Source of the DNA: Parachlamydiales bacterium
Lineage (GTDB): Bacteria; Chlamydiota; Chlamydiia; Chlamydiales; JAJFMK01
Length of the DNA: 64,000 bases
NCBI GenBank assembly: GCA_963704365.1
Contig: OY969899.1
Location: 872,421-936,420, forward strand
Direction of reading: 5' to 3'
Below the pieces are notes generated by a model. That model searched no databases and was not told where the DNA came from. It worked only from the letters and a program-made list of their open reading frames with translations. Below, piece by piece: positions 5,656-44,866 of the stretch (position 1 is the first letter of the stretch; every line of letters starts with the position of its first letter). The translations under genes were made by a program, and so were the position numbers.

Positions 5656-8483
5656 ACAATTTAAAATTAACATCAAAAATGCTCAATTAGCAGAAGCTAT
5701 CCATCTTGGAGATCTCAAAAAGAAGATTTCCCTTAAGAAGGAAAAGAAGGCGGAGGAGAATGCTCCGAAGCCAACAGAAGAGCTTTTAGAAAAGTCCGCT
5801 CCAGAAAAGCAGGCAAAAGTAGAGCCACCACCTGCAGAGGCTCATATTCCTCAGCATGCTGGAGAAGAGTCTTTGGCGGAAGCGCCTAAGGCGAAAGCTC
5901 GTTCGCGCTCTGCTTTTGCTGGCGGGACAAAGCCCCCAGCCGAAGAGGCTGCAAAGGAAGAAGAGGTTGTTATCCCTCAACCGACCGTTGCAAAAACTCC
6001 TTTGGAGTTAGCAGAAGAAAAACTTTCCTTTGTAGAAGAACCGCCTGCCGTAAAAGAAGAGCTAGAAATCAAGCCTGTCGCCCCTCCCATATCTCCCCTC
6101 CCTGCTCCTAGAGAGCAACCTAAGACACCAGCTCCTCCTTTACCAAGAGCTCCTCTTTTCCGTCCTGCTCGTCGTGATGGAGACCAGAGAACACCTTCCC
6201 CTCTACCTCCACGTGAGCACAGAGCTGGGACTGGAGCTGGAGCCGGAACCGGAGCACCACTAAGGCCTCCTTTTAAACAACACAAAGAGTATGTAAGCCC
6301 TTTTTCTGTTCAGAAGAAAGCCTCACCAGAGGGTCTTGCCAAATTACAAGCCTCTCAAAAAGAGCGTCTAGGTCCTACTGGAAGACATATTAGCGATTTC
6401 GTTAAGCCACCTGAGCCTCCACGTAGGGGACCTCCTCCCGCTGCCGGTGCTGGTACAGCTGCTGCTGACAAATCAAAAGTCAGACGGCCTGCAACGGAAT
6501 CTGCCGCAGATGCCAAGAAAGTTGGCTTGAGACCTGCTAAGTCAAAAGACTTTAAAGATTTCAAACCAGTAAAGAAAACATTGACTGCTGCAACCGGATC
6601 TTTCGATTCTCGGGATAGGCAAGGGCTACGTGTTTCTGGAGATGAAGACAGTCGCCGTCGTCGTAAACCTAAATCGAAGTTTTCTCCTCGTGACGATGCA
6701 CAAACTGTCCGTCCAACGACATTGAAAATTCGTCCTCCTATATCGATCAAAGATTTTGCAAGCGAACTTAAGCTTAAAGCCTCAGAGCTTATTGCCAAGT
6801 TGTTTTTGCAAGGGACAGTTGTCACATTAAACGACATGCTCGAAGATGAAACAACCCTTCAACTGTTGGGTCATGAATTCGGCTGTGAAGTGACAATTGA
6901 CACTTCAGAAGAGCAAAGAATACGGATCACAAGCAGCACTATCAAGGATGAGATCAAAAATGAGCCATCTGATGTCCTTATTCTTCGACCTCCAGTTGTC
7001 ACCTTTATGGGTCACGTCGACCATGGTAAAACTAGTTTGATTGACTACATCAGAAAAACAAATCGAGTTAGCCAAGAAGCAGGCGCAATCACGCAGCACA
7101 TCGGTGCCTTTAAATGCTCGACCGCTGTTGGGGAAATCACGGTTTTGGATACTCCAGGTCACGAAGCTTTCTCAGCTATGAGAGCTCGGGGAGCTGAGGT
7201 AACTGATATTGTTGTCTTGGTTGTAGCTGGTGATGAAGGGATGAAACAACAGACTCTTGAAGCGTTACAACACGCTAAAAGTGCTGGCGTCACCATCGTT
7301 GTGGCCATCAACAAATGTGATAAACCAAACTTCAATGCCGAAACAGTCTACCGACAACTTTCAGAAAACGATCTTCTACCTGAAGCATGGGGTGGACAAA
7401 CCATTACTGTGAATTGCTCTGCAGTGACTGGAGAAGGGATACCTCAACTTTTGGAAATGCTTGCACTGCAAGCTGAAGTTTTGGAATTGAGAGCTAATCC
7501 TCACTCTCGTGCTCGTGGTTCTGTTATTGAATCTGAGATGCATAAAGGGATGGGTGTTGTTGCAACCATTTTGGTCCAAAACGGAACACTCAAGAAAGGC
7601 GATGCAGTCGTCTTTGATACCGAGTGGGCACGTATTAAAACAATGAAGGACGAATTAGGTAAAGAATTAGTCGAAGCTCCCCCTTCAACTCCTGTATTAA
7701 TCACAGGTCTTTCCGGACTTCCACAAGCTGGCCAAGAATTTATCGTTGTTAAAGACGAAAAAGAGGCCCGTGAAATTGCTGAAACCCGTTCGATTGAAAA
7801 GAGGACTAAGAGCCATCTATTGAGCAAACGGTCGATGGATTCGTTCCTACAGCAAGGTGGTGCTGGTAAGAAAATGCTCCGCTTGGTACTCCGTGCAGAC
7901 GTACAGGGTTCATTGGAAGCGTTGAAGTCAGCCTTATTGAAAATCACTTCGGCAAAAGTGGATATCGATATTGTATTCACTGGTGTAGGCGAAATTTCAG
8001 AGTCTGATGTTCAGACTGGCTGCTGCTTCAAAAGCTGTGATTATCGGATTCCATAATTCGATCGAATCGCATGCTGAAAATCTTGCAAAAGAGATGGGCG
8101 TCGAGATCAGAATTCACGATGTGATCTACCACGCGATCGATGACGTAAAAGTCTTGATGGCTGGACAACTAGAAAAACTGGCTCAGGAAATAACCAGAGG
8201 TTCTGCTGTTGTTCTGCAAACTTTCAAATCATCCCATGTTGGTGTGATTGCAGGTTGCATGGTCACAGAGGGTACTGTTCACAGAAACTACAAAGCCGTC
8301 CTCAAGCGCAAAGGTCAACAGATCTGGCGTGGTGGTCTTGCCTCTCTCAAAAGGCTCAAAGAAGATGTGCGTGAAGTACAGAAAGGCTTTGAATGCGGGA
8401 TTGTGTTAGATGGTTTCACCGATGTGCAGCCAGATGATGTGATTGAATTCATCGAAATCATCTACATTACTCAGGAGCTATAA
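5648..8483 (+). CDS. infB: Translation initiation factor IF-2, reading frame interrupted by a 1-nt shift near 8015
   Basis: ORFs 5648..8056 and 8007..8483 together are colinear with IF-2. G-domain motifs are [17 protein letters not shown] and NKCD. The junction reads ...GEISESDVQ | [13 protein letters not shown]..., matching the E. coli ...[20 protein letters not shown]... region if one base (cag-a-ctg, about 8015) is removed. The TTG start at 5648 overlaps the nusA stop. Long Pro/Ala-rich N-terminal region. Confidence 0.9.
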
Positions 8484-9564: not shown

Positions 9565-10384
9565 CATTGCAATTGGCGTATTCGATGGGGTACATCTTGG
9601 GCATCAGGCCTTACTGCAAGCTTTAGCGCAATATGGGAAAGGGGTTGTGATCACCTTCTCTACCCACCCACGATCGTTACCCTTACTCTGTACGATTGAA
9701 CACCGTATAACCTTGATCAAAGCCTTCGGGCATGATGTGGCACAAGTCACATTTGATTCGATCAAAGACAAGACAGCTGAACAGTTTTTGGACGAGTTGA
9801 CCTTAAATGGACTTCAACATTTTATCTTGGGCTATGATAACCACATTGGCAAAGGACGAGCCGGAACACCTGCTTTCATTAAAGACTATCTCGAGAAAAA
9901 AGGGGTACTCGTCAATGAGGTTCCCGCCATCTTAGAAGATGGGCTACCCATTTCCAGCGGCAGAATCAGAAAACTCATCGAAGCAGGTGATTTAGAAGGG
10001 GCAAAATCACTTTTAGGCAGGCCTTGGGGCCTACTTGGATCACCTACTAGAGGCGACGGAATAGGGAAAAAAATGGGGACTCCGACCCTTAATTTTTCTT
10101 TAGAGGGACTAGTCACGCCTCCATTTGGGGTTTATACAGCCCTACTAAAGACATCAACTGGGACGTTCAAGGGGGTAGCCAATATTGGCATATCACCCAC
10201 TTTAAAAAGGACGACCACTCCCCTTTTCGAGATTTATCTTTTTACTATGGAGAATCTTCCTCCACCACCTTACGAAGTCATACCCATAACATTCTTGCGA
10301 CCAGAACAGGTTTTTGCATCAGAAACCGAACTTAAGAAAGCCATCGAAAAAGACAAAGAGCAAGCCTTCAAGTTGCTAAATTAA
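9539..10384 (+). CDS. ribF: Bifunctional riboflavin kinase / FAD synthetase
   Basis: GVFDGVHLGHQ nucleotidyltransferase motif and a C-terminal riboflavin-kinase-like region (GIGKKMGTPTLN...FEIYLF). The GTG start at 9539 is uncertain. Confidence 0.85.
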   Translation: MLTLSPSSNIAIGVFDGVHLGHQALLQALAQYGKGVVITFSTHPRSLPLLCTIEHRITLIKAFGHDVAQVTFDSIKDKTAEQFLDELTLNGLQHFILGYDNHIGKGRAGTPAFIKDYLEKKGVLVNEVPAILEDGLPISSGRIRKLIEAGDLEGAKSLLGRPWGLLGSPTRGDGIGKKMGTPTLNFSLEGLVTPPFGVYTALLKTSTGTFKGVANIGISPTLKRTTTPLFEIYLFTMENLPPPPYEVIPITFLRPEQVFASETELKKAIEKDKEQAFKLLN

Positions 10385-10460
10385 AAATAATAACAGGATG
10401 AGAGGATAAGAAAGGATGGGCTGTTGCTAAGCCTTTAGAACCCATCTATAGAAAGATCTA

Positions 10461-26640: not shown

Positions 26641-26910
26641 ATCAAAGAGGAGAAAACCATTTTACAGCCGAAGGTAGTAAATAATTGGACGCCCGAAGGG
26701 GCTGCAGGGAGCCAAATTTGGGAAAACGAAGACCTCGGCTCTACTGCGTAGGTCGATGGTCCGCCTCTAGGCGCTTGTTCGCTTTATCCAAAGTTGGCCT
26801 CTGCAGTCCCCCCTCGGTTACCCTACTCAAGCTTAGTCGCCCCTTAACAGCATCTTTTTATTATTTCCTGTTTAGGTTGCTATCATGATAATGGGGTAGT
26901 AGGAGAGGCT

Positions 26911-35452: not shown

Positions 35453-35660
35453 CCAAAAGCACTCTTTGAATAAAACGATTTTATTAGGATTGACCATCAT
35501 TTCTTTAAGTATACCGGGATCATTCTCAAGAGAAATTGCAAAGTTTGCAGCTCCTAATCTATTCACATTGTCAAAGCAATTGTTCCAGACTTGCAAATTA
35601 GGATCATTGAGGTCTAACTTCTTTAATAGCCGAAGGCTATCCATTCCATCCTACTCATCC

Positions 35661-35982
35661 CATACGCATCAACCTAAGCCTAGAGGTAGATGCTAAGCTA
35701 ATTAACCACAAATAGATGGAATAAAAAAAGAGTAGAATATCAGAGTCGATTATTCTAGAAGGGGCAATTCAAAATCCTCTCTCTGTGCTCTCTGTGAGCT
35801 CTGTGGTAAAAAATAAAAAAAAGATCACCACAGAGCTCACGGAGAGCACAGAGAGTAATCTTGGGCCTTTCTTCGAAGATTTAAGCCGTTTTTGACTAAA
35901 TTGTTTTCTAAACGGTTCTTTGTAAGTAATTTGCTTTTAACAGATTGTTGAGAAATTGATGTTCCTTAAGTTGATGCGTATG
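35661..35982 (+). mobile_element. MITE-like non-coding repeat, copy 1 (322 bp)
   Basis: Terminal inverted repeats CATACGCATCAACCTAAG (35661..35678) and CTTAAGTTGATGCGTATG (35965..35982). An internal 29-bp-arm hairpin (about 35778..35855) has one mismatch. No ORF. Repeated at 39725..40074 and 55536..55828. Confidence 0.8.
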
Positions 35983-35990
35983 CGCTTCTA

Positions 35991-39689: not shown

Positions 39690-39724
39690 GCAGGCATACA
39701 CTATCTAAAGGAATAAAGAAAAAA

Positions 39725-40074
39725 ACAGGATGAACAGGCATACGCATCAACTTAAGGAACACCAATTTCTCAACAATCTGTTAAAAGCAAATTACTTACA
39801 AAGAACTGTTTAGAAATCAATTTAGTCAAAAACGGCTTAAATCTTCGAAGAAAGGCCCAAGATTACTCTCTGTGCTCTCTGTGAGCTCTGTGGTGATCTT
39901 TTTTTTATTTTTTACCACAGAGCTCACAGAGAGCACAGAGAGAGGATTTTGAATTGCCCCTTCTAGAATAATCGACTCTGATATTCTACTCTTTTTTTAT
40001 TCCATCTATTTGTGGTTAATTAGCTTAGCATCTACCTCTAGGCTTAGGTTGATGCGTATGCCTGATCATCCTGT
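39725..40074 (-). mobile_element. MITE-like repeat, copy 2 (350 bp, inverted relative to copy 1, longest TIRs)
   Basis: Reverse complement of copy 1. Here the terminal inverted repeats extend to about 33 bp (ACAGGATGAACAGGCATACGCATCAACTTAAG ... CTTAGGTTGATGCGTATGCCTGATCATCCTGT). Confidence 0.8.
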
Positions 40075-40170
40075 TATTTTTTTTGATTTGCCTACCCTCT
40101 CTTGCCCCTGTTCTTTGTGTGATTCTCCCATTTCGGGTAAACTTTCCTTCTCGGAAATTGAGATGATGCG

Positions 40171-44767: not shown

Positions 44768-44853
44768 ATAGAAACAAAGTATTGACCGATGTAATTAACA
44801 GGTTAATTGCGACACTACTAAACATAAATATTTATTTTAACAATAATTATATA

Positions 44854-44859
44854 TATAAT
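44854..44859 (+). promoter_or_regulatory. TATAAT box 7 nt upstream of the TPR paralog 2 ATG
   Basis: TTATATATATAATCATTACTATG. No Shine-Dalgarno sequence. Confidence 0.35.
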
Positions 44860-44866
44860 CATTACT

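Follow-up and report, generated by a model that had tools for sequence, protein, structure and literature searches.

Correia elements of Neisseria, ERIC, RUP and BOX are small, non-coding elements bounded by terminal inverted repeats (TIRs) and found in multiple copies in intergenic DNA near genes. When co-transcribed, they yield long RNA hairpins that can serve as RNase III substrates or affect mRNA stability and termination. Correia elements make TA duplications, their hairpin is formed by the TIRs themselves and, to our knowledge, no IS4-type parent exists for them. Other mobile elements insert into palindromes: IS1397 and ISKpn1 into REP/BIME and IS621 into REP, the families involved being IS3 and IS110. 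The target consensus of IS231 is GGG(N)5CCC, and MIC231 elements are non-autonomous IS231 derivatives mobilised through the same ends. Target specificity has been reported for IS231, and the IS231 subgroup is marked by the end signature CAT-------AA--TAA, by direct repeats of 10-12 bp (7-13 bp are tabulated across the IS4 family) and by many transposase pairs with >50% identity (PMC2266710, Table 1). GTAG-tagged REPs have also been described (PMC3733652).

The element described here occurs three times in the window, the 64,000-nucleotide stretch of Parachlamydiales DNA that was analyzed, and is very probably a MITE from the IS4 family with IS231-type ends that homes to foldback repeats after genes. 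Copy 1 (35661..35982, forward strand) is complete, 322 bp long and of the short form ending at CAT/ATG, with its left TIR at 35661..35678 (+, CATACGCATCAACCTAAG) and its right TIR at 35965..35982 (-, CATACGCATCAACTTAAG). Copy 2 (39739..40060, reverse strand), also complete with 322 bp, is 99% identical to copy 1, while copy 3 (55527..55814, forward strand) is 96-97% identical, is without the first 34 nt including the left TIR, and has 2 mismatches in its right TIR. The repeat finder paired 35661-35983 with 39738-40060 as a 323-nt inverted repeat (99% complementary) and 35695-35981 with 55527-55813 as a 287-nt direct repeat (97% identical). The same genome has a fourth copy, 98% identical, about 5 kb upstream of the window (L121 2207-2529), within the 10 kb fetched beyond each window end, so that the window and its 10-kb margins hold four copies in about 85 kb, in different gene contexts. 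The 18-bp TIR CATACGCATCAACYTAAG stands at both ends of copies 1, 2 and 4. In the window, this TIR core has 5 matches against 0.05 expected, and the hairpin arm 6 against 0.06. Alignment of the copies with their flanks gives an element size of 322-323 bp, the homology breaking off sharply at CAT and ATG. The longest open reading frames inside the element (26-48 aa) are not conserved between copies as reading frames, and an exact look-up of the 48-aa one called in copy 3 returned copy 3 alone.

Each copy in the window carries a central hairpin, at 35779..35855 in copy 1 (with one G-U/C-A position), at 39866..39942 in copy 2 (perfect, 29/29 paired) and at 55611..55687 in copy 3. Its arms, of 29 nt, consist of three 9-mers (NNCTCTGTG) plus GT and enclose a 19-nt A-rich loop. 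The first-pass annotation, made from the letters of the window, had proposed a discrete multi-copy MITE with TIRs, three copies, a hairpin with 29-bp arms and no coding capacity. This picture was upheld: the copy 1 coordinates were exact, the copies are 96-99% identical, each has the hairpin, and no reading frame exceeds 48 aa. The element is thus well below the MITE size limit of about 600 bp and non-coding, has TIRs and, at copy 4, a target-site duplication (TSD), and is present in multiple dispersed copies. Copies beyond the first three, which the annotation had thought worth counting, are represented by the fourth copy just outside the window and by six short-read contig termini that fall 25-50 nt inside MITE ends, since a multi-copy repeat breaks de Bruijn assemblies.

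Three further repeats of the window are of other kinds. Four to five tandem 23-bp units (TTTACTCGACTTTCGTG...), 67-76% alike, occupy 26527-26641; tandem TPR-protein paralogues, 74-79% identical, lie at 44847-47035 and 47168-49372; and a 300-bp repeat, 97% identical, recurs at 60779-61078 and 62636-62935, 1.9 kb apart, inside two minus-strand reading frames.

The ends of the element match the IS231 signature, with CAT at positions 1-3, AA at 11-12 and TAA at 15-17. An IS4-family element of a Bacillus thuringiensis plasmid (1657 bp) ends with CATGCCCATCAACTTAAG, which matches the chlamydial ends at 16 of 18 positions. In a scan for the exact 18-mer, covering one genome per species, the matches listed come from many phyla and number more than 109 stretches, with the 18-mer often close to the end of a contig. 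In three of these (L077, L086 and L089) two inverted 18-mers lie 1.42-1.47 kb apart around a single reading frame, whose product passes the cut-offs of both NF033592 (IS4 family transposase) and PF01609. Among the plasmid homologues of one such transposase, 697 of 812 records are from the Bacillus cereus group, with 26-31% identity. Judged by its ends, the element is therefore a MITE that groups with the IS231-type derivatives of the IS4 family. The transposases related to these ends would form a subgroup of their own apart from Bacillus IS231, because their identity to the Bacillus proteins is only 26-31%, below the >50% of many IS231-subgroup pairs. The earlier description of the element as undescribed-looking needs correcting, given the IS231-subgroup signature, the 16/18 match to B. 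thuringiensis and the existence of autonomous IS4-family elements with identical ends. Three other classifications were considered and rejected: a REP/REPIN, which would be a palindrome of 20-40 bp tagged with GTAG or CGTC and linked to a RAYT transposase (there is no GTAG tag, the size is 322 bp and the TIRs are of IS4 type), a MIC231-type cassette (there is no gene inside the element) and an IS200/IS605-type hairpin element.

When metagenomes were scanned for the terminus with CAGG in front of it, 14 loci were obtained. The element at L140 spans 1537 bp with both termini and encodes a 481-aa transposase, which matches NF033592 at 223 bits and aligns with a B. thuringiensis protein over 420 aa (28% identity, E 6e-44), including the YREK motif; the latter is seen in the stretch YRVRWQIELLFKCWK (Y(2)R(3)E(6)K). 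The DDE/Y(2)R(3)E(6)K signature belongs to the autonomous relatives alone. Homologues of the L140 transposase on longer contigs gave two further complete elements, L141 with the TSD GGATATGCAGG and L145 with the TSD CCTGTTTATCC. The genes next to L141, among them one for a SWIB-domain protein, suggest that this contig comes from a chlamydia; for L140 and L145, the one pointer to a probable chlamydial origin is the flank repeats they share. Autonomous elements with the same TIRs, whose existence the first-pass annotation had raised, are hence found in other genomes. The host gave none: the window contains no IS4-family transposase, and the 120 best homologues of the chlamydia-type enzyme are all located elsewhere than on the 2.6-Mb host contig. 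No transposase was found in the chlamydial MAG loci of the 18-mer scan either. With no partner for them found in the host by these searches, the copies may have become stranded.

Copy 4 defines the boundaries of the mobile unit, as a perfect 11-bp TSD, CCTGCTCATCC, abuts its CAT and ATG. No other copy has an intact direct TSD, the duplication being absent or rearranged in copies 1-3. The same TSD motif recurs at related MITEs of Parachlamydiales MAGs and metagenomes, with perfect 11-bp duplications CCTGCCCATCC in L018 and CCTGTATATCC in both L135 and L137. The flanks show that the preferred target is the 11-mer CCTGNNNATCC. It is also recognizable beside the other copies of the window: the left flank of copy 1 (35623..35660, +), half of a target foldback repeat, has the target 11-mer CCTACTCATCC at its end, with no counterpart duplicated on the right; and the right flank of copy 3 (55815..55828, +), CCTGCTCATCCTGT, contains the motif. 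Direct repeats of about one helical turn, 11 bp each, flank copy 4, L018, L135, L137, L141 and L145.

In non-chlamydial phyla, IS4-family elements and MITEs with the same terminus lie between direct repeats of 18-21 bp that are perfect or nearly so (L077 6006-7470, L033 3487-3661, L048 5222-5410, L064 3267-3501, L006 1210-1334, L063 5605-5843, and L025, L022, L100 and L104), often in the form of REP-like GTAG-GGG...CCC hairpins. Spanning two helical turns, such duplications exceed the 7-13 bp listed for the IS4 family. Other elements with this terminus have repeats of 10-11 bp instead (L037, L089, L023).

What kind of sequence is the target? When the MITE and one duplication are removed from copy 4, the empty site consists of an A8-run, CAGGATRRR 9-mer arms and a T8-run. 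In the predicted fold of this reconstructed site, the arms enclose two small hairpins, with -68 and -75 kcal/mol on the two strands; modelled in this way, the stretch between accC and the gene that follows resembles a foldback of the bidirectional terminator type. At copy 2, the left flank (39715..39738, +) comprises an A-run and ACAGGATGAACAGG, the outer arm of a terminator-like foldback, and the right flank (40061..40084, +) comprises CCTGATCATCCTGT and TATTTTTTTT, the other arm with the T-run. Joined without the MITE, these flanks give a 14-bp stem with A-run and T-run. The succession of A-run, stem and T-run around copies 2 and 4 therefore belongs to the target and not to the MITE. The right flank of copy 2 is nearly identical to that of copy 4, with 25 nt in common on that side, and copies 1 and 4 share about 38 nt of flank on the other, lying at the same position in paralogous flanks with the MITE in opposite orientation. 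The autonomous element at L140 sits in the arm of a GAACAGGAT foldback, and the same foldback makes up the inside of the L052 MITE from a Parachlamydiales MAG.

Apart from the occupied sites, the only other members found of the flanking 9-mer repeat are MITE-free and decayed. One, at 5785-5895 of L121, is a paralogue of the copy 4 target, and the other is at 10372-10480 of the window. Both have an A-rich run followed by (C)AGGATRRR 9-mers, at 5790-5880 on the minus strand of L121 and, directly past a stop codon, at 10383-10420 of the window. Neither folds better than shuffled sequences. Another MITE-free foldback, at 59867-59956, has 40-nt arms that are 93% complementary (-67.7 kcal/mol), followed by a U-run. 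It lies 5 nt past the gene for a 638-aa GTPase, between convergent genes, and is terminator-like; with the target repeat it shares only the arm-end motif ATCCTGTTA.

The apparent extension of the TIRs in copies 2 and 3 bears on where the element ends. The first-pass annotation had given copy 2 TIRs of about 33 bp. The strongest alternative reading goes further and takes a long form of about 350 bp, with TIRs of 33-42 bp (ACAGGATGAWCAGG followed by CATACGC...), as the mobile unit and copy 1 as a trimmed derivative. The 14-mer ACAGGATGAWCAGG, allowing at most one mismatch, indeed occurs in the window solely beside MITE ends, and inverted flanks recur in copy 2, L052, L139, L128 and L073, the opposite arrangement never being seen. 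However, the 14-nt extensions (ACAGGATGAWCAGG in one form and CCTGMTCATCCTGT in the other) equal the target motif plus three bases, and the extension is therefore flanking target sequence outside the element. Copies 1 and 4 end at CAT/ATG, and in copy 4 the direct 11-mer duplication surrounds the unit with these ends, as it does in L018, L135, L137, L141 and L145. Moreover, the flank shared by copies 1 and 4 is in opposite orientation relative to the MITE interior, and L052 and L106, from one MAG, have different interiors with the same 25-nt flank, so that the flank is independent of the element. A long mobile form is thus improbable, and the 33-bp TIRs resolve into an 18-bp end and a foldback arm.

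In copy 2, as in L052, L139, L128 and L073, the target motif stands inverted on the two sides, a pattern that a single insertion with an 11-bp stagger cannot produce. It is possible that both arms of the foldback were hit and that a deletion between the two MITEs followed, a course of events from which only the polarity actually seen would be expected. A 1.9-kb stretch at L128 (1398-3279) has inverted TIR bounds and 30-nt flanks that are near-identical (29/30) but contains no transposase; its inner ends are nearly identical too, and it may represent a long palindrome or else have arisen in assembly.

All four copies lie 7-49 nt after stop codons, in agreement with the earlier placement at gene 3' ends. 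The end of copy 1 is 7 nt away from a kinase stop codon, copy 2 starts 49 nt past the ribH stop, copy 3 lies 16 nt past a 193-aa gene, with 22 nt between it and the stop codon of a 263-aa gene, and copy 4 is 26 nt downstream of the accC stop codon. The genes beside the copies (kinase, ribH, a methyltransferase-like gene and accC) are mutually unrelated, and the wider neighborhood in the window includes genes for a T3SS CopN/HrpJ-type protein, an ATP/ADP translocase, riboflavin synthesis and a protein kinase. Together with a 2.6-Mb contig that encodes the same proteins, this gene set points to an environmental chlamydia as host. An empty site after ribH was sought in the closest relative (L115, 95% RibBA), which is without the MITE there, but its intergenic DNA and gene order could not be aligned and no orthologous empty site was found. 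In L115 (5790-6020 and 860-1140), a different palindromic repeat of about 230 bp with inverted GGTCCGGAGGACCGAAATATGAAAGCCCAG ends follows ribH, and long (CCCTTG)n tracts are present as well; a CCCAG...CTGGG repeat like that of L115 is nested in an element of the MAG K940_chlam_7 (L105). The 193-aa gene beside copy 3 is split in the ENA strain by an IS66-family transposase (L123 15220-17100 / L125 576-2249). The copy 3 region is about 100 kb from ribH in that strain, compared with 16 kb in the window, which means that a rearrangement separates the strains at this place.

Together, these observations lead to the conclusion that the elements home to foldback repeats downstream of genes, and such homing would explain why every one of the four copies sits at a gene 3' end. 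By analogy with the chemistry of the IS4 family, a DDE transposase of that family acting in trans would bind the functional ends of the 322-323-bp non-autonomous transposon, the 18-20-bp inverted repeats CATACGCATCAACYTAAG, cut at the terminal CAT and insert the element through an 11-bp staggered cut. In this chlamydia, the target 11-mer lies in the arms of a second repeat family, the CAGGATRRR 9-mer foldbacks bracketed by A-run and T-run, which resemble bidirectional intrinsic terminators downstream of genes. Such targeting would put copies from a few to 50 nt past stop codons, and insertion in the foldback arms explains why copy 2 seems to have 33-bp TIRs. The central hairpin with its 29-bp stem is a separate foldback module of CTCTGTG 9-mers, carried as cargo.

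This central hairpin is very stable in prediction (-57.9 kcal/mol, z = -13; the whole element gives z = -13 to -16). The first-pass annotation had suggested that the copies may double as transcription terminators. For the central hairpin, a canonical intrinsic terminator was rejected, since the loop has 19 nt, the stem is followed by AGGAUUUUGA or UAAUCUUGGG and not by a U-tract, and the terminator scan did not call it; the sequence features that would suit a terminator, A-run, stem and T-run, belong to the target repeat. A search of the window against Rfam 15 gave no match at the gathering score, only generic hairpin matches to eukaryotic miRNA precursors below threshold, and the literature searched held nothing relevant on the hairpin sequence. 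MITEs of other Parachlamydiales (L018, L106) have hairpins of the same design at their centre. Such hairpins also stand alone directly after a gene at L043 7648-7692, and have counterparts in lone foldbacks at L129 8542-8617 and L137 2432-2512, 4281-4354 and 9606-9680. In MITEs of Gemmataceae and Chlamydiota that share the TIR, the same 9-mers (CTCTGTG / CACAGAG) are arranged as inverted subterminal arrays (foldbacks or arrays at L022, L074, L104 and L039 3386-3483), which suggests a 9-mer module common to PVC bacteria. Across nine such hairpins, 87.6% of cells pair and 10 pairs are changed on both sides, a covariation score that none of 500 shuffles reaches. This shows that the palindrome is maintained, be it at the level of DNA or of RNA.

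Could the repeats be host-selected RNA elements of 3' UTRs, terminators or mRNA stabilizers with the hairpin as core and transposon-like ends that are incidental? The distance of at most 50 nt from a stop codon in all four copies, the stability of the hairpin, the compensatory changes and the lone hairpin after a gene at L043 would all fit. Compensatory changes are, however, equally expected for a DNA palindrome and so make no distinction between DNA and RNA; the position after genes is explained by the target foldback together with selection against insertions elsewhere; and the missing U-tract, the long loop, the negative terminator scan and the empty Rfam result do not favor the idea. With TIRs, a TSD and autonomous relatives showing transposition, this reading is very improbable. 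For the transposed element, the effect of the hairpin is most likely that of a stable RNA/DNA hairpin placed in 3' UTRs rather than that of a canonical terminator. By analogy with Correia elements, it is plausible that the 29-bp RNA stem, co-transcribed with the upstream gene, serves as an RNase III substrate or blocks 3' exonucleases.

A broader proposition is that PVC bacteria possess, in their IS231-like elements and the MITEs derived from these, a homing system for terminator-like 3'-end foldbacks, and for REP-like hairpins in other phyla, where duplications of 18-21 bp sometimes result; these elements would carry a 9-mer-built hairpin of their own, conserved through compensatory changes between Chlamydiae and Gemmataceae. 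It is rather unlikely in this full form. If true, it would mean an unrecognized class of structured repeats in environmental chlamydiae, and if the hairpin is functional, in 3'-end processing or stability or as a DNA hairpin aiding transposition or target choice, 3' UTRs would be remodelled genome-wide.

That the copies came from segmental duplication or gene conversion, for which their 96-99% similarity and clustering within about 85 kb might speak, is scarcely credible, because homology stops sharply at the element ends, the neighboring genes are unrelated, an 11-bp TSD is present and the same element type occurs in other genomes. Beyond the element and the short target repeat the flanks are unrelated, and the initial view of discrete elements holds.

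The element is of an ordinary kind in an under-studied host, and nothing about it overturns the current understanding of MITEs. It shows that environmental chlamydiae carry recently active miniature transposons of IS4/IS231 type, which interrupt short-read assemblies and point to places where the genome may rearrange. By-products are a precise target motif, CCTGNNNATCC, inside terminator-like foldbacks, a plausible mechanistic reason for placement after stop codons and a family of 9-mer-built hairpins common to MITEs across PVC bacteria. The literature searched contains no description of such elements, or of MITEs, in Chlamydiae.

Among known systems, the element is closest to IS231 and MIC231 of the B. 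cereus group, with which it has in common ends that start with CAT and fit the signature, TIRs matching at 16 of 18 positions, an 11-bp duplication within the 10-12 bp range and a sequence-specific choice of target. It differs from them in its chlamydial host, in the target CCTGNNNATCC, in having no passenger gene and in its central hairpin built of 9-mers, and the transposases related to it are only 26-31% identical to those of Bacillus. Unlike Correia elements, the chlamydial MITE has its hairpin as an internal module and its parent family is identified. With IS1397, ISKpn1 and IS621 it shares insertion aimed at extragenic palindromes and not at random DNA, and elements with the same terminus in other phyla sit in GTAG-GGG...CCC hairpins that resemble the GTAG-tagged REPs. 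The chlamydial element, in contrast to these palindrome-homing insertion sequences, belongs to the IS4 family, and its target repeats are AT-flanked foldbacks of 9-mers.
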